Shown: positions 19,601 through 59,800 of the stretch, in pieces
Layout: every line of letters starts with the position of its first letter
How positions within the stretch are numbered: the stretch's first letter is position 1
NCBI RefSeq assembly: GCF_021028975.2
Contig: NC_059425.1
Location: 192,076,001-192,140,000, forward strand
Reading direction: 5' to 3'
DNA length: 64,000 nt
From: Sphaerodactylus townsendi
Taxonomy: Eukaryota
Notes under the pieces: model-generated
The model's database searches: none
Seen by the model: the letters and a program-made list of their open reading frames with translations, nothing else
Told to the model about the DNA's origin: nothing
Made by a program: the position numbers and the translations under genes

Positions 19601-22551
19601 ACCCAGTGACAGAAGTCTCGGGCTTGCCTATGGGCAGAGGCTTTCACAGGATGCCTTTGCTTCTATGGGACATGGCAAGGTGGAAGGCAACACGCGGTAC
19701 CCTCTGACTCCCACAGGGATAATTAAGGGTTCTATCCTCTGAAATGGCAAGAAGAAGAAGAAGGAGGAGGAGGAGGAGGAGGAGGAGGAGGAAGAAAAGG
19801 AGGACGAGGTCTTGTCGAAGGCTTTCATGGCTGGAATCACTGGGGTGCTGTGGGGTTTCCGGGCTGTATGGTCGTGACCAGTAGCATTTTCTCCTGATGT
19901 TTCACCTACAGCTGTGGGGGGCATCTTCAGAGATCCTGAAGACTACAGATGTAGATGAAACATCAGGAGAAAATGCTACTGGACACGGCCACACAGCCCG
20001 GAAACCCCACAGCACCCCCCCCAAAAAAAAGAATGTGGATTTTTCCCATGTTCCTCTCCATCTTGCAGTCCCTTTTGATCTCCAGAAAGATTATTTCTGG
20101 AGACATGGAATGTCTGTGAGCAGAAAATAATGTGGGTTATGAGAAGGAAATATGTGAATTTGCAGAGCTGGGTTGACAAGAGTAGCAGAAGGTCTCAAAC
20201 TGGGATACTGAGGAGTTCTAGCTTGGATTTGGTCCTCTTCAACATTTTTATCAGTTTATTGTCGAAGGCTTTCACGGCCAGAATCACTGGGGTGCTGTGT
20301 GGTTTCCGGGCTGTCTGGCCGTGTTCTAGCAGCATTCTCTCCTGACGTTTCGCCTGCATCTGTGGCTGGCAGATCTTCTGAAGATGCCAGCCACAGACGC
20401 AGGCGAAACGTCAGGAGAGATTTTTATCAGTTACTTGGAGGAAAGGGTGACAAGAATTTTTATCAAATCTCTATGACACAAAACGAGAAGGAACAGAAAG
20501 CACCCCAAAACACAGAAATGCAGTTCAAAATGACCCTGATAGGCTGGAAAGTTGGGCTGAAAATGGCAAAATAAAATCCAACAGTTAACAACTGCAAAGT
20601 TTTCTACTTCAACAAAAAGAATCGAGGCACACAAGTAGGATGAGGGAGATTCGATTTGGCAACAGTCCATGAGAAAAGCATCCGGGATTGTGGTCAATTA
20701 CCGGCTGAAAGACGGGTGATGCAGCTCCACCAGAGGCCGAGGCAATTTTGAGCGGCAGCAGCAGAAGGAGGCCCCCTTTGCTCCCTCCTCAGGAGCCCCG
20801 TGTCCCATTCTGGGGCAGGGCACTTTGAGAACAAGGCACACACACTGGACAGGTTCAGAAGGAAAAAGGACAGGATGCCCGGAAAGAAGTCCTTGTGGTT
20901 TCTGGTCCACCTTGTGTGTCGGAAACACAGCCCTTAAGGCTGCAGGACTACTGTGGGGAGCCTGTGGCTCCTTTTTCTACCTGGTTTTAGAAGAGGCTGC
21001 AGGATGTCTGCACGTTTTGGGGGTGGTGCTGGTTGGTTGACATTTAAAAAATGTCTCGTGAAGGTTACTGTACATGCTTTACCTGCTAATTCTGTATTTC
21101 AAGAGACCCCTCCTTAAAGTTACCCAGGAAGCTTCCCTAGCAGAGCGGGGAGCTGAGCCGGGGTCTGCCAAACCCTCGTTCGCCCTGGTCCATCACTCTT
21201 ACAACAACATCACACCGGCTCAGATTGAATGAGGATTATCTTGAACACAAATGAACGCTGGGGTAAAACAGGCACAAAGACTTGCTTTTGATCGTATACT
21301 CTGAGAGGGCAAAGTGTTTTTTGTCTATCACATCAACTCTCCAGAATGGCTGTTATACCGTTTTCTTAAAAAGCGATGTACTCACCACAATTCCGCATGT
21401 GCATAGCACTTTTTCGTACAGCTGCCAAGCTGCGGCTCTGATGCTGTCCGTCACCCGTAAAGCACAGCACATGGCAACGAACTCTGGTTCAGCAGAAGGC
21501 ACCCTGAGAAAGGAAAAGAGACCTCCAGACATTGGGTATCAGGATGACTATATAGGCAATGTATATTTTTAGAATGTTGGGTCCCTTGGGCCTGATGTTC
21601 ATAATGTGAATTCAGCAAAGCACATAAACATTTTAGCACATAATCTGATTTGTCAGCTGCAGTGTTCCGTCCATACCGAACAAATATGAGTTACCCAAAC
21701 ACTGTACAGCGGGACTATACAAGCTCTTACGTGACACTGAAGGCATGCGTTCCAAGGATCCCAATCATTTCCTTCAACAGTACAACACAGCCCTCCAAAA
21801 ACATATATATACACACACATACCCCAGTAAGTACGTATTTCTAGAGATATGCTCCCTCCCACACATTAAACCTATCACTATGCAGTGAAAGTATGGCTTC
21901 AATGTTCATAACATTGCCAACAACACTAGGAACACAACCCTCCCACAGACCCCACCAAACATCCACATGCAAATGAGGGGGAGGGAGAACCAATCCTAAC
22001 AGGTCAGAACAGACATTACTGGGAAAGCGGCAGATCCTGGAAAGAGGAGTGCCCCATAACTGAAAGTCGCAAGGCTTCTGTATCCAGGCAGCACCAGCAC
22101 CACTGTGTCCCTGCCCACCAGCCTCAAACGACTGCGACGTGCAGATCGCCAGACACTCTGCTTCAGGCATCAGGTACTCCACAGCAGCTTCTCTCCGCAG
22201 GCAAGCCCCTGGCCTCGAAGAGGTCACCCTCCATTGGCTCCAACCTGACAGCACTTTACACACACACACACACGCACGCACGCACACACGCACAAGAGTT
22301 GCACTGTCCAATACATTTCACAAACTCATTTATTTATATTTACACCCCACCCTTCCCAACAGGGCTCAGGGTGGCGAACAGCAATAAAAGATTACAATAA
22401 AAAATTACCCCCTCCAGGGGTAGGGCGGTTTATCAAATTGAATAATAATAATAATAACAACAACAACAACAACTTGGGAAGTGTCCGATGTGTGATGTAA
22501 TACAAAATCCAGCATATTGATCTTGTTTGCTGTGTATAACTGTTTTGTATC

Positions 22552-24987: not shown

Positions 24988-25300
24988 TCCTGGAGCACCT
25001 TCCCTATGAGGAGAGGCTGCAGCGTTTGGGACTCTTTAGTTTGGAGAGGAGACGGCTGAGGGGGGATAGGATTGAAGTCTATACAATTATGCATGGGGTA
25101 GAAAATGTTGACAGAGAGAAATTTTTCTCTCTTTTCTCACAATACTAGAACCAGGGGGCATTCATTGAAAATGCTGGGGGGAAGAATAAGGACAAATAAA
25201 AGGAAACACTTCTTCACACAGTGCGTGATTGGTGTTTGGAATATGCTGCCACAGGAGGTGGTGAGGGCCACTAACCTGGATAGCTTTCAAAGGGGCTTGG
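24988..25300 (+). mobile_element. CR1 LINE fragment
   Basis: [26 protein letters not shown]...TRGHSLK...FFTQ, near-identical to the other CR1 copies in the window. Confidence 0.92.
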
Positions 25301-25544
25301 CACTAAGATTGATCCATGGAAAGGGATTATCAAGGAAGAACTCAATGACCAAATGGCCGATTGGCTAGAAAAAATTGAGCGGGAGTCCCTGAAACCTCGC
25401 CAAAAAGTTGAGTTCATCAACAAATTTGTGATTCCACAGATATTGTATATCTTGGATCACTCAGAAACCGGAACAACCTACCTCCACAATATCGATGATC
25501 TCATAAGATCAAAAGTTAAAAAGTGGTTACACCTTCCCCAATCA
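25296..25544 (+). mobile_element. R2-type non-LTR retrotransposon RT/thumb fragment
   Basis: Open frame LGTKIDPWKGIIKEELNDQMADWLEKIERESLKPRQKVEFINKFVIPQILYILDHSETGTTYLHNIDDLIRSKVKKWLHLPQS; LG-x3-DPW, LKPxQK, DHSE and WLHLP motifs as recalled for vertebrate R2. Confidence 0.8.
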
Positions 25545-25553
25545 GTAAATATG

Positions 25554-25721
25554 TTCCTGCTGGGTGACCTTGGGCTAGTCAGAATTCTTTCAAGACTCTC
25601 TCAGCCCCACTTACCTCAACAGGTGTCTGTTGTGGGGAGAGGAAGAGAAAGGAGCTTGAAAGCCACCTTGTGTCTCCTTACAGGAGAGAAAGGTGGAGTA
25701 TAAATCCAAATTCTTCTTCTT
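25554..25721 (+). mobile_element. SINE 3' half
   Basis: GCTGGGTGACCTTGGGCTAGTC...CAGGAGAGAAAGG..(CTT)n. Confidence 0.75.
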
Positions 25722-25970
25722 CATTTTATTTATAATCCTTCCCAACCTATGGATTGACAGGACTGAAAATTGAATTTAAGAAGTATTATCACTACTTGTT
25801 AGCATTCTCTACTTGATAGCACTTCTTTCTGGTTATCTCCATATGATGCGATTTACTTGCATTAACCTTAATTGTCATATCATGGTAAATTCACAGAAAA
25901 GTTTTCCATGTACAGGAAGGTGTATTAAGAAAATGAAATGCAAAAATTTTAGACAAACAGATTTGTAATA

Positions 25971-25976
25971 TTTATT
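25971..25976 (-). terminator. Probable ITM2B polyadenylation signal
   Basis: AATAAA on the minus strand in an AT-rich stretch about 850 nt past the stop; another at 25725-25730. Confidence 0.45.
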
Positions 25977-26540
25977 TTCCACTGCACATAATAGCTTATA
26001 TACATGTTAGTAACCTTAAGTTACTGTGTAGTTTTGTTACAGCTAACACCTATTAATATACAGTACATGGCAAGAATCAAACTTAAGTAGGATTGCATTA
26101 AAACATACACAAATGCCAAGAAATTGCACTTTTTAAAATTCTTTTCCAATCTCTGTAAACCACCTGTCACTACTAATATGTTATTAGAACTCTCAAGTGT
26201 TGAAGTTAATTTGAATACATGTCTTGTTTTTAATTCAGAGGGATCAATCTGTCCAATTGTGCAGAAGAAGGGAGGTATTCCATACCTCCTGCTACTTTGT
26301 CAAGGTTCATTACATGAAATGCGATAACTACTGCCATTATACAATTGCGATTCAACATGTAAAACCACTCTTTAAAAATATGGAAATTATTTTAAAAATC
26401 AGGAGAAAAAAAAAGTTGCTTTTAGCTATGAAGGAAGGTCCACTACTTGCATAGCCCATATAAAATAAAAATCACAGCATATGAGAGGAAGGGCTGGCCA
26501 GAGAGGCTCTTTCAGTCTTCGGCTGCAAATGTCATCTCTT

Positions 26541-26814
26541 ACTGGTTCTGGTGGGTTTTCCGGGCTGTGTGGCCGTGGTCTGGTGGATTTTGTTCCTAAC
26601 GTTTCACCTGCCTCTGTGGCTGGCATCTTCAGACATGTATCACAGAGAAAAGTCTGTTACATGACTTCCCTCTGTGATACAGCTCTGAAGATGCCAGCCA
26701 CAGATGCAGGCGAAACGTTAGGAACAAAATCCACCAGACCACGGCCACACAGCCCGGAAAACCCACCAGAACCAGTTGAATCCGGCCGTGAAAGCCTTCG
26801 ACAATACATTGAAC
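26541..26814. mobile_element. Penelope-derived long inverted repeat in ITM2B 3' UTR
   Basis: About 107-bp arms (26541-26647 and 26670-26776), GTGAAAGCCTTCGACAATAC end, hammerhead cores, 14-bp flanking duplication. Confidence 0.82.
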
Positions 26815-26822
26815 GTCATCTC

Positions 26823-42986
<16,164 letters not shown>

Positions 42987-53850: not shown

Positions 53851-56800
53851 ACGTAGCTAGCCAGTTAGTACGTAATTTGTTGCTTTAATTCCAAGTTGTT
53901 GTTGTTGTTATTATTTATTAGTTTTGTATACCGCCTTCCCCTGGAGGGCTCTGGGCGGTGCACAACATATTGATACGTAGAAGTAGAGCACAGTTTAAAG
54001 CATAACAAAATACAACTATGAGATATTTCCACCCCCACAGTCACCCCCATCTTACACTTGTGTTCTTTTACTGTCTCTGGAAACTGAAACCATTGGGGGA
54101 GTTTGTCAGACCTTGTCAGCCATACAAGAGTATTCAGCCTCAGGAATGTGCAGCTCTCCCTTGTGTCTTGGATACTGTTAGGCAGAATTCCACTGGGTTG
54201 TGGAGCTTCTGTTTATTTCGGAGAACTGACCCCCTTTCCTGGTCCTGTACTTTGCTTCAGGGAGCTGATTGAAATACTGGCCATTTCAAGGAACCAGAAA
54301 CTTGCACAGTCTGGGGAAGAGGCCCAGGTAAGCAAACTGCTTAAAAATCTGAAAGGAGATATTATGTCTGTTCAGTCTGTAATCCTTCACTAGGCATGCG
54401 GACCAGATCTTAAAGTATCAGCAGCTGATTGATATCCCTATACAGCTTTCATAAGAACATAAGAACAAACCAGCTGGATCAGACCAGAGACCATCTAGTC
54501 CAGCTCTCTGCTACTCACAGTGGCCCACGAGGTGCCTTTGGGAGCTCACCTGCAGGAGGTGAAAGCAATGGCCTTCTGCTGCTGCTGCTCCTGAGCACCT
54601 GGTCTGTTAAGGTATTTGCAATCTCAGATCAAGGAGGATCAAGATTGGTAGCCATAGATCGACTTCTCCTCCATAAATCTGGCCAAGCCCTTTTTAAAGC
54701 TATCCATTTTGCTACATTGAATTGCATTTGCCATTTCTTAGCCCAATCACCTAATTTATTAAGGTCTGCTTGGAGCTCTTCGCAATCCTTTGTGGTTCTC
54801 ACCACCCTACATAATTTGGTATCATCCGCAAACTTGGCCACCACACTACCCACCCCTACTTCCAGGTCATTTATGAATAGGTTAAAGAGCACTGGTCCCA
54901 AAACGGATCCTTGGGGGACACCACTCCTTCTCTGTACTTTTTCTATCTCTTCGATATCCTTTTTGAGATGTGGCGACCAGAACTGAACACAGGACTCCAA
55001 GTGCGGTAGCACCACAGCTTTATATAAGGGCATGACAATCCTTGCAGTTTTATTATCAACTCTTTTCCTAATTATACCCAGCATAGAGTTTGCCTTTTTC
55101 ACAGCTGCCATGCATTGAGTTGACATTCCCCTGGAACTATCAACTAAGACACCCAAATCCTTTTCCTGGTCTGTGCCTGATAGCACTGATCCTTGTATGT
55201 GAAGTTTGGATTTTTTACCTCTATGTGCATCACTTTGCATTTTTCTACATTGAATTGCATTTGCCATTTCTTAGCCCAATCACCTAATTTATTAAGGTCC
55301 TCTTGGAGCTCTTCACAATCCTTTGTGGTTCTCACCACCCTACATAATTTGGTATCATCCGCAAACTTGGCCACCACACTACCCACCCCTACTTCCAGGT
55401 CATTTATGAATAGGTTAAAGATCACTGGTCCCAACACGGATCCTTGGGGGACACCACTCCCTACATCTCTCCATTGTGAGAACTTCCCATTTATACGCAC
55501 CCTTTGTTTCTGTTCCTCAACCACTTTTTAATCCATAGGAGGTCTTCCCCTCTTATGCCTTCATTGCTGAGTTTTCTCAACAGTCTCTGGTGAGGAACTT
55601 TGTCAAAAGCCTTTTGGAAATCCAAGTAGACAATGTCCACTGGTTCCCCCTCATCCACATGCCTGTTTACGCTCTCAAAGAACTCTAGTAAGTTTGTAAG
55701 ACAGGACTTGCCTCTGCAAAAGCCATGCTGGCTCTTCCTCAGCAGGTCTTGCTTTTCAGTTCCTGCTAATCTGTTAAAATGGCCAATGTGATCATTTGTT
55801 TTGGGGGCAGATCCTGGAGCTGCTGATTCAGAGAGATCAAGAGTTCCAGGAATTGATGAAACTGGGTCTGGAACAAGGGAAGATTCACCGGGAGATGCAG
55901 CTTTTGGAAGAAGTGGTGGGGAAGAGGGACAGCGACATCCAGCAGCTTCAGAAGCAACTGAAGGAAGCGGAGCACATATTGGTGAGTCCATCAGTGACGC
56001 TGCTACCATCCAGGGTGCTTGCAGACATTCACACTCCTGAGTCAGGCATGCTAAGGTGATAAACAGTCACTGGAGAGAAAGGCAGGCTTATAAATGCTTT
56101 AAATAGGTGCCTTAATATTCTGTGAGTTCCCTGTAAGGGAGTTCACATGTGTCCATTACAGTTGATTATGTCACAACTTGCCTTTGTAAAATGTTCACCC
56201 CAAATGAGTCTTTCCCTGGCATCTGGAGTTCTGTCTCAAACCTTTCTTTGAATCTCGTGAGAGATTTCTTCAAATTTTCAGTGCCTGCTCCCTTTCCCAA
56301 CTCCCTTTCTGCAGGTTACTGTTTAGTCCCATTTCTTCATGTCTTGTACCTGCACTGAGGGTTGGCTCCCATGCGCCTGCCTCCCGTGCGCCTGTGCTGA
56401 ACGAAAGTTTCCTTTACCTGGTCTTCTTATCCTTTAGATAGTGGGGTGAAGCTGGGGCAGAAGAATCGCTGAATAAATAGGTGCTATTACAGCAGCACCA
56501 TTTCATTGCTACTGTTAAATATTCCTCCAGCCCTGAGGCTAGAAATACTCTTTGTCAACAAGTGGATGATGACTTCTTAAAGCCCCAGTCCAATTTCTTG
56601 GCTTTTCAGGCAGAAGTTTTAATTCAGTTATGATGACCAGAAACCTGGAAATGTTCTCTGAATTGCAAATTGATTTTTAGAATCTAAATCTGTTTGTTTA
56701 CCAGAAATATTGTTTCATAATTAGGCCACAGCTGTTTATCAAGCAAAAGAAAAACTGAAGTCAATAGAAAAGGCAAGGAAGGGTGAGTATTTCTGTTTCA

Positions 56801-59800
56801 TGAATTTTCATGAAATGGGGGGGGGGTGCCTCCTGGGTGGAAGATTTGCTCTATAGATTAGCTAATTTTATTATTATTATTTATATCCCACCCTATTCCC
56901 GAATGGGATGATAAGAGAACTAATATTTAAATGGCCACCAGTGAGACAGGGACTTATTTCTTGATCAGTGCTTTTGACTATTTCTTGAACTGTCATATGA
57001 CTCAGTCATGAAGGAGCTGCTGCCGTCACAAGTCTTTCGGCTTCAGCCCAAACTCTAGAGAATATTTTCCCACTGGCTTTTTTTTAATTTACTGAAGTAA
57101 CTGCTAGAAGGCGAGGTAAAGTGTTTTCTTTTTCATCACATCTGAATGGTGTGGCTTAAGGGGAACAATATATTTTAGAAAGTGTATTTTCCTCTTCAGT
57201 TTCTCCACTTCTTTTATGTATTAGAAACATCTGAAGTCAACAGTCCATGCTTGCACAGGTTTTCTTAGAAGCAGGACCCTTTGGAGGGGGTGGGGGGTGG
57301 GGCTTACTTCCAAGTATGTGTGCCCAGGATTGCATGGCATCAGCCATAGTATTCTTCTTAAAAGATATTTTCAGACAGGTATGTATGAAACTCAACCGTT
57401 TGTAAAATGGGTGGGGTGTAGAATGCATCACTTCAGGGGGAATGTTCCTTCTTGGGGTCCAGCCAGTCTCGAACCTAGTTTCTTTCTTCCCTTCGGTTTA
57501 ATGGTCTTTGGATGGAATGAGAGCTTGCTCTGGATCCATGGTATACGCGTACCATACGCACACAGACACTTCCTTATTTTGGGTGGGGTTACTCTTTTGT
57601 GGGCCTGAGTTGAATTTTTCATCATGCTTGTCCCTGTGTCTTTTGGTGAACTCCTCCATTGCATTTTTCTACGTAGTTGTGTGTGCTGTTTACTTCTATT
57701 GAAAGTCAGTCATGCACAAGAGCTGCCCTGCTGGATTAGACCAGTATCCCAGCACATTCAGGGGCCAAGAAAGAGTGAACGGAGGCCAGTGCCTTCCGGA
57801 CGTTGCCTGCTAGCTCCAGCACTACTCTTTAGAAGTTTGCTGTCTGAATGGGTAGCTGCCAATAGACCCCTCTGTATCTCTTTTTTAAGCCATTTATGTG
57901 CATGGCTTCCCCAACATCCACTGGCACTGAATTCTACAGCTGAAATACTCATTCAGCAAAGAAGCACTTTAGTGTACCGTTTAAGGCTTCAGAGGATCAT
58001 CATGATGCCAGTCACAGATGCAGGCAAAATATCAGGAGAGAATGCTACTGGAACATGGCCATACAGCCCAGAAATCCCACAATACCCCAAAGAAGTACTT
58101 CCTTTGTCTGGCCTCAGTTTGTCTGGCCCATCAGCTTCGTTAGGTGCCTCTAAGGTCTGATGTTAGGCTTTCTCTACTGTATGCGTACTTTTTAATAAAC
58201 CTCTATTGTATACCTTCCCGTGGATGGCTTTCCCATGGAAGCCTTTCAGGCAACCTCCTGCCAGGAGGCCATTGCACTGAAAAATGTAGTGGTTCACAAA
58301 GACAGGCTTGCCAGAATGGTGGCTCACAGGATTAGGATGTTACGTTCAAGAATCGCTGCACAAGAGAGGAGGGGGAATCAGAGCAAAGCCCTGCGACATC
58401 TGTGCTCTTTCGTCACTCATCCCCTGAGACAGTGGTCTGCGCTGGAGCATGTGTGTGGCAAAGCTGGTACGTATAACAGTGTCATCTTTTTTCACCCCCA
58501 GGGTCTGTTTCCTCGGAAGAAATAATTAAATACGCTCACAGAATTAGTGCCAGTAATGCGGTCTGTGCTCCTCTGACGTGGGTGCCAGGTAAAGAATAAT
58601 TTTCACACATCAGTCTTATTTTCTCTGTAGATTGGATATGTAAATGTTTCTTAACTGTTACAGAAAGGTTGCCGCGTTACTGTCTTCAGGGCATGACTGC
58701 CATAGGTGAGGAGGGTTTCGATTGTGCTGTTGCAATGCAGGGTTGTTGTTTTTTCATATGTGACCATATATTTTTAAGGGGACCCGCGAAGGCCATACCC
58801 AACAGATTTGGAGATGAGAAGTGGTATCCTCGGTCAGATGAACAATCCATCAGCAAATGGAGTCAACGGTCACTTACCAGGGGACGCGCTTGCAGCGGGT
58901 AGATTACCAGGTAATGGGAAACCAGGGGAAACACCAGCTGCTCCAGTCCTTGATAGCTCTTGAAGAATGGAATGAGTGCTGCCCAAACCCTTGAAGAGCA
59001 GTTTGCAGAACAGGGGCATGTAGACCTTTGGTCTGTGTAGCACCTGGGGCCCACGCAAAGAGCCTGGAGCCGGTTTTCAGAGAGCCTCGTCTGCTGTCGC
59101 CTGGTCATTCCAGTCCAGGCATTGGCCCAGCAGGGAGATTGGCCCAAACTTCAAGCCACAGCGTGGCCATTGGGATGGCTTCTTAAGCTCTTGTGCTGTT
59201 GCAACCATTTGCATCTCCACGGGTGTTTTCCCTTCCTGGCATTCGGTACCAAATCATGGCGAGCAAATCAGTTTGGTTTGCCTTTGCCAGCCTCCCCGTC
59301 CCCCTGACCTTCCTTGGAGGTCTCCCAGACAAATACTTGCGTGGATCGAGGCTGAGCGTGGGCGACTGGCCTGATGTCACCCAGCCACGCTGGCCACGTT
59401 AGCAGAAACGTCAGGGCAATGTCATGCTGACCACAGCTACGTTCGAAACGGAGGGGGAAATATCTGCAAGAGTTGCAGGGGGGCAGTGTTCTTGGCAAGC
59501 CCCTGGCGTGGTGGTTAAGAGCAGGGGCACTCTAATCTGGAGAACTGGGTTTGATTCCCTGCTCTGCCACTTGAGCTGTGGAGGCTTTGATTAGCCTGTG
59601 CACTCCAACGCACGCCAGCTGGGTGACCTTGGGAGCTCTCTCAGCCCCACCCACCTCACAGGGTGTTTGTAGTGGGGGGGAGGGCAAGGAGATTGTAAGC
59701 CCCTTTGAGTCTCCTACAGGAGAGAAAGCGGGGGTTATAAATACAAACTCTTCTTCTCCCTCATGCTATCAGATAGTGGGTTTTGATTCTTGCTGTAAAT

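Follow-up and report, generated by a model that had tools for sequence, protein, structure and literature searches.

In the window, that is, the whole 64-kb stretch of DNA analysed here, a retroelement insertion most probably lies just 3' of the intact stop codon of ITM2B: a 5'-truncated, head-to-head palindrome of a Poseidon-type Penelope element, flanked by a 14-nt target-site duplication (TSD) that spans the stop codon. The palindrome likely gives the ITM2B mRNA a 114-bp hairpin, which is predicted to be edited and to be otherwise near-neutral. We consider the insertion likely to be an ordinary and tolerated one. Since the entire stop codon lies inside the duplicated stretch, the upstream duplicate keeps the protein intact, and the insertion could thus be tolerated. 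The features of the locus are collected in Table 1.

By its BRICHOS domain, its PDB match, and its RB_A neighbor, the host gene is ITM2B (ITM2A and ITM2C lay outside the direct comparison). Judged by its Poseidon element, the host organism is probably a squamate. The coding exons of the gene, which were chosen by known peptide motifs, begin near 42986 on the minus strand and finish with the TAA (26825-26823). Two of them matched BRICHOS, one above and one slightly below the Pfam cut-off, and the sole PDB match of exon 3 was human ITM2B (E 5e-14). An RB_A domain was found at 1349-1711 in the window, and RB1 and ITM2B are syntenic. To the right of ITM2B, the Pfam search confirmed no genes. On the mRNA strand, neither AATAAA nor ATTAAA occurs from the stop to 26234, and hence none precedes the insert; the next such motifs are at 26234 and 25976. 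The likely poly(A) signal is 847 nt from the stop with the insert and 563 nt without it.

The duplicated 14-mer has exactly two occurrences in the 64-kb window, one at each edge of a 270-nt insert (26545-26814). The probability of finding an exact 14-mer at both edges by chance is about 2e-7, even when 3 nt of slack are allowed per side. The stem consists of two arms of 114 nt each (26541-26654 and 26663-26776), which are 95% complementary and separated by an 8-nt loop. Six positions are mismatched at the DNA level, leaving 108 Watson-Crick pairs; all six fall within the inner 49 bp, and the outer 65 bp are perfect. Four letters of the downstream duplicate (26541-26544) take part in the stem by pairing with 26773-26776, a 4-nt microhomology with the element. 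The mRNA strand folded at -237.4 kcal/mol (z = -25), and none of 200 shuffled sequences was equally stable. These results agree with the preliminary description of the locus, which had placed the 14-mer on both sides of the insert and over the ITM2B stop, had noted that the reading frame survives, and had put the near-perfect stem at about 107 bp.

Table 1 Features of the insertion and its host gene (positions in the window)
Feature	Position	Strand	Remarks
ITM2B gene, six coding exons	25950-42986	-	ends approximate
ITM2B exon 6, coding part	26826-26911	-	splice acceptor AG at 26913-26912; X2 contig end at 26913
Likely ITM2B poly(A) signal, AATAAA	25971-25976	-	X20 RNA depth fades near 26010
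Upstream TSD copy	26815-26828	-	last codon CAG (26828-26826); TAA in use as stop (26825-26823); then 8 nt of 3' UTR
Downstream TSD copy	26531-26544	-	within 3' UTR
Direct arm, antisense to ITM2B: 5'-truncated Poseidon-type Penelope end (pLTR end, ORF start, tail)	26663-26814	+	aligns with Anolis PAc RNA
Inverted arm, ITM2B mRNA sense: same element end without tail	26545-26661	-	
Penelope tail, 38 nt	26777-26814	+	between two reverse-transcription start zones; one arm only
Element ORF, first 41 codons	26691-26813	+	ATG starts at hammerhead position A9
Antisense minimal hammerhead	26685-26722	+	two pairs in helix I and an intact G10.1-C11.1; GUU triplet; cleavage predicted after 26719
mRNA-sense minimal hammerhead	26595-26632	-	single pair in helix I; wobble at G10.1-U11.1; GUU triplet; enclosed by the stem

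Judged by its sequence layout, the insert is a truncated, non-autonomous, head-to-head copy of the end of a Poseidon-type Penelope. The closest described element is Poseidon_Ac (PAc) of Anolis carolinensis, with which it shares a hammerhead over the start codon, the cut site, the tail, and the 3'-end sequence. In PAc, the ORF has its start at stem II of the hammerhead, following C3 and G8, and the cut lies 26 nt past the start codon (PMC11167929, as far as its accessible text goes). In the insert, C3 is at 26685, G8 at 26690, and the ATG at 26691, and the predicted cut again falls 26 nt past the ATG. PAc copies have their 3' ends at internal reverse-transcription start zones, with an optional tail of 30-40 nt (PMC11167929); here, the +111 to +118 zone corresponds to 26801-26808, and the insert ends at ORF +124. 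The PAc RNA aligned with 26720-26814 without gaps, with 71 of 95 letters identical by eye, including 31 of the last 33. A target-site duplication and an inverted pLTR are likewise present. The Penelope origin put forward in the preliminary description is thus borne out by the layout, the tail, the 3' end, and the RNA alignment. The family's loose ends in the sequencing runs fall at 26663, 26683, 26777, and 26808-26814, and those from the run reads reveal family sequence upstream of 26663. The two arms are not equally long in element terms: the inverted arm extends 7 nt further 5' in the element and is without the last 38-42 nt, the tail.

Unlike PAc, the insert belongs to a different subfamily, holds 152 nt of the element end with no reverse transcriptase (RT) or endonuclease sequence, and is arranged head to head. 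An ORF with RT and GIY-YIG domains, as in an autonomous element, is not present in the insert, which has 41 codons only. A protein search with the 41-aa ORF start returned 10 candidates, none at E <= 0.01, a result of little weight, and an exact 32-nt search gave no match in the readable supplements of the PAc study (PMC11167929). As its hammerhead triplet the insert has GUU, in contrast to GUC or AUC in two of the window's other copies.

The arrangement also resembles Penelope insertions described in Adineta vaga, with inverted pLTRs, a one-sided tail, and a short TSD (PMC3846280), and the pairs of minimal hammerheads that lie on opposite strands, 100-700 bp apart (PMC4209133). All of these traits, namely the head-to-head inverted pLTR, the tail on one arm, the short TSD, and the opposite-strand minimal hammerheads, recur at ITM2B. 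Compared with the rotifer insertions in the accessible part of that report, the TSD is longer (14 nt here, 8-10 nt there), no ORF body lies between the arms, and the insertion is in the last exon of a host gene.

Three other copies of the family are found in the 64-kb window, and two of the three are palindromic, with 92 and 59 pairs. Folding back therefore appears to be a routine product of the Poseidon family here, with the palindromic share and the copy number resting on four loci in 64 kb. The two further palindromic inserts, at 19809-20010 and 20251-20416, are about 250 nt apart, and the one at 20251-20416 has a 12-nt repeat on its flanks; the third copy is a single-arm fragment at 58004-58080. 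The family is very abundant, and 58,926 records of run X5 matched the stretch compared. By a rough estimate, which assumes 20,000-100,000 copies, 20,000 genes, and a genome of 2 Gb, 2-12 insertions per genome are expected to have a duplication covering a stop codon, and the position over the ITM2B stop thus needs no special cause.

How the palindrome formed can be approached from its ends. PAc cleaves and extends both strands and was modelled as a dimer (PMC11167929, accessible portion). [quoted passage not shown] Both cDNAs would then have stopped early and joined head to head with one extra base. Consistent with two-ended priming by a Penelope dimer, each arm terminates at one of the two start zones known from PAc. 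Self-priming, the origin favored for such palindromes in the accessible part of PMC3846280, is a live alternative to two-ended priming. Twin priming on a single RNA was rejected, as both arms cover the same part of the element. The arms share a minority family variant at 26589/26728, and they may therefore derive from one source element or have undergone conversion. Many family copies break off at 26683 in all four runs, often with GATC before the break, and copies break off at 26663 in three runs; these two positions appear as hot spots of 5' truncation or inversion at hammerhead helix I.

To follow the insert in transcripts and relatives, four of 22 listed sequencing runs, none of which was recorded as RNA of organism A, were compared with the locus: X2 from organism A, which is RNA-like as judged by its depth pattern; X5 (DNA-like) and X20 (RNA, of which 6% was read) from organism B; and X8 from organism C. 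In X2, contig depth was 531.5 on the UTR (25750-26552) and 342.6 from 26913 to 26788, against 14.8 on the intron. The high-depth contigs pass both duplicates and enter the insert by 8 and 27 nt, lengths below the 31-letter bar for bridging. As exon 5 also ends in AG, the break of X2 at 26913 can be read as the point where spliced and unspliced sequences diverge. In X20, depth was about 8 both on exon 6 and on the UTR beyond the hairpin. X8 had zero depth on the flanks beside both junctions and is hence uninformative about the presence of the insert.

Taken with the fold, the X2 junction contigs place a long duplex in the mature mRNA, the RNA kind of this run being judged from depth and no single record spanning the duplex. 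The hairpin is thus likely carried in ITM2B mRNA, as the preliminary description had expected, with contigs crossing both junctions at high depth and no poly(A) signal before the insert. Its further claim of a long double-stranded RNA just past the stop holds for inclusion in the transcript and needs correcting as to the position, as the stem starts 46 nt downstream and not directly at the stop. It had also proposed a look for the insert in related species, and the insert was found in organism B: X5 had a flat depth of 47-50, and its contigs reach into the insert from both flanks, to 26576 and 26788 (32 and 27 nt). The flanks of X5 differ from the window at 17 positions in about 830 nt and at 16 in about 500 nt, and the downstream duplicate has a single change, at 26531. 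With the insert present in an organism diverged by about 2-3%, the insertion predates the split between A and B.

A contig of X2 passes straight from 26552 to 26787 and so lacks most of the hairpin; at a depth of 161.9, it reaches about 30% of the UTR value (531.5). The 27 letters on one of its sides tie it to the ITM2B locus. Splicing was rejected as the cause, as the mRNA strand has GC..CC at the two ends. The skip is bordered by an imperfect short match, the X5 contig continues past 26552, and template switching of reverse transcriptase over strong structure has been described (PMC10275267, accessible portion). We regard the skip as a probable artefact of reverse transcription, with a deletion allele in the X2 animal as the alternative. 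Skipping of this kind in cDNA can mimic a shorter isoform and calls for caution in annotation. A further joint, 26577-26775 (X2 depth 285.2; 19 reads in X20), was set aside as not assignable to ITM2B, its 19 reads being more than the depth of about 8 on the flanks. In intron 5 (26884-27300), X2 and the window disagree at 11 of 419 letters, and organism B shares most of the changes listed; in the UTR, 3 of 803 letters differ. The excess in the intron may reflect either a diverged haplotype of the intron or local assembly errors in the window.

Both arms contain the motif CTGAAGA...GAAAC, at 26685 (+) and 26632 (-), in keeping with the preliminary description, which had assigned one hammerhead core to the mRNA sense and called its stem I poor. 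In the mRNA-sense core, A9 is followed by an additional base and both boxes, CUGANGA and GAAA, are in place; in this respect it is a minimal hammerhead. A functional core would be expected to have several pairs in helix I and a G10.1-C11.1 pair; the mRNA-sense core has one pair and a G-U. Nor is it accessible or placed for dimer formation, as the core is paired and the second core lies on the other strand. Opening it would cost 52.6 kcal/mol relative to the hairpin by fold computation, and its mean unpaired probability was at most 0.0065 at all six growing transcript lengths. Rfam gave no matches at the gathering score in the window. When set against the family majority (40 of 97 rows), with 26648-26649 left aside, the sense arm carries departures at 26612, 26634, and 26635, and the antisense arm one, at 26682.

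Several other readings of the locus were weighed against that of a tolerated palindrome. It is very improbable that the palindrome reflects an assembly error or a rare polymorphic allele: both junctions were seen again, in a different organism A sample as well as in organism B, the arms differ from each other at 6 positions, and the 284-nt joint expected of an empty site was absent among the best-supported 15 of 293 joints in X2. What it has in its favor is that no listed record spans the whole hairpin and that the X2 contig skipping it could be a deletion allele. Cutting of ITM2B mRNA by the mRNA-sense hammerhead, alone or with a Poseidon protein, has a minimal chance of being correct. The core motifs do stand in the mRNA sense, and the Anolis ribozyme became active once its protein was added (PMC11167929). 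However, the core has no helix III and is about 99.9% paired, and the antisense arm, transcribed first, would be predicted to trap the sense hammerhead on its emergence. Furthermore, single minimal hammerheads were inactive in vitro (PMC4209133), and the PAc ribozyme cleaved only with its own protein, with no RNA-seq ends at its cut site (PMC11167929), as stated in the accessible parts of these papers; ribozymes of this type require either a dimer or the protein of the element. Neither a pile-up of ends nor a step in depth was seen at the locus, which counts for little as other copies swamp the hairpin reads. Given the weak helix I, the G-U pair, the paired core, its complement being made first, the inactivity of single hammerheads, and the protein dependence of PAc, we conclude that the self-cleavage raised in the preliminary description is very unlikely under our fold model.

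The same description had suggested altered termination, with a link to the amyloid peptides ABri and ADan, and neither suggestion is supported. ADan involves a short duplication, and the present event is similarly located at the ITM2B stop codon. Read-through, if it occurred, would by computation add 34 residues rich in aromatics, compared with 8 at the empty site. However, the insertion has altered neither the stop nor the 8 nt that follow, and a read-through product would begin with the same four residues in either state. The stem begins 46 nt beyond the stop, outside the footprint of a terminating ribosome (about 15 nt 3' of the stop), and UAA followed by G is a tight stop. ABri and ADan require a changed stop or frame (PMC12067230 and PMC3898387, accessible parts); here, neither a lost stop nor a shifted frame was found, the duplicate is in the UTR, and no extended peptide is encoded. 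The link is therefore positional only, since the coding sequence is untouched. Even though short extensions of human Bri2 can nucleate amyloid (PMC12067230, accessible part), an ABri/ADan-like extended, amyloid-prone peptide arising from altered termination is extremely improbable. A regulatory role is the least remote of these readings, though still unlikely: the hairpin would have been co-opted so that ADAR, Staufen, or Dicer alter ITM2B output, or as a source of small RNAs against Poseidon. Its 114-bp stem with a perfect run of 65 bp, its retention in two taxa 2-3% apart, and the lowering of translation by inverted repeats in human 3' UTRs (PMC3458544) are compatible with such a role. So are the places with A>G and T>C changes, which are more numerous in X20 (14 and 11) than in X5 (9 and 6) and were counted over all family copies, not at the ITM2B locus. 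In X20, depth reached about 3,000 on the hairpin, compared with about 8 on the flanks, with other copies in more than hundredfold excess on much of the hairpin, and the X20 changes were accordingly not taken as editing at ITM2B. Against a regulatory role, X20 depth is alike on both sides of the hairpin, persistence at 2-3% divergence requires no selection, and the human precedents described next show no effect near the stop.

For the tolerated insertion, the closest precedent is the inverted Alu pair of BPNT1 (PMC3458544). In both cases, a transposon-derived intramolecular duplex lies near the stop, at 15 nt in BPNT1 and 46 nt here. Unlike the Alu pairs, the ITM2B hairpin stems from one insertion event, is shorter (114 bp) and more perfect (95%), is in a reptile-type host, and has its editing predicted. 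According to the accessible part of PMC3458544, translation fell 2- to 5-fold with inverted Alus that were distant from the stop, whereas duplexes 15-65 nt from the stop, studied with Alu pairs in human cells, were edited with no lowering of reporter output, and editing left export and stability unaffected. As a long duplex, the ITM2B hairpin is a likely substrate of ADAR, as the preliminary description had suggested, much like an inverted Alu pair near a stop codon. The nearest human parallel speaks against any change in translation at 46 nt, and protein output would be little affected.

The perfect outer 65 bp and the persistence in two taxa are mild hints, and weak ones, of conversion or selection. 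At their most far-reaching, they would point to ITM2B as a housekeeping mRNA that carries a domesticated palindrome, with the outer 65 bp kept perfect, small RNAs silencing Poseidon, and changes in the sense hammerhead selected against cleavage of the host mRNA. The last part draws on the three departures from the family majority and the G10.1-U11.1 wobble in the sense copy, compared with one departure in the antisense copy. We consider this scenario a long shot. If it were true, minimal ribozymes could act in vivo; either anti-Poseidon small RNAs or a selectively disabled sense ribozyme would bear on hammerhead activity in vivo, a question left open in the accessible parts of PMC4209133 and PMC11167929.

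As a tolerated palindrome, the locus is a natural case in which a transcript of high coverage contains a near-perfect duplex of 114 bp, common to two taxa, and it could be used to study ADAR editing and tolerance of double-stranded RNA in reptiles. It may be unreported, though every part of it is of a known kind: a literature search on the ITM2B stop codon and transposable elements found no report, and one on squamate Penelope hairpins, judged by titles and the starts of abstracts, found no report of the ITM2B locus.

Other repeats surround the last exon of ITM2B. Related SINE-like repeats ending in TTC runs flank it in the same orientation, at 25556-25727 and 27816-27984. Between the first of these and a LINE-like tail lies a stretch of about 250 nt (25300-25553, plus strand) that encodes part of a retrotransposon protein of R2 type (E 3e-20 against R2 proteins of known structure). 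R2 elements usually reside in 28S rDNA; no rRNA match was found in the window. Two ordinary retroelement remnants were also observed, an integrase fragment in an ITM2B intron (32003-32491, plus strand) and, further to the right, a reverse-transcriptase fragment (55491-56066, minus strand).
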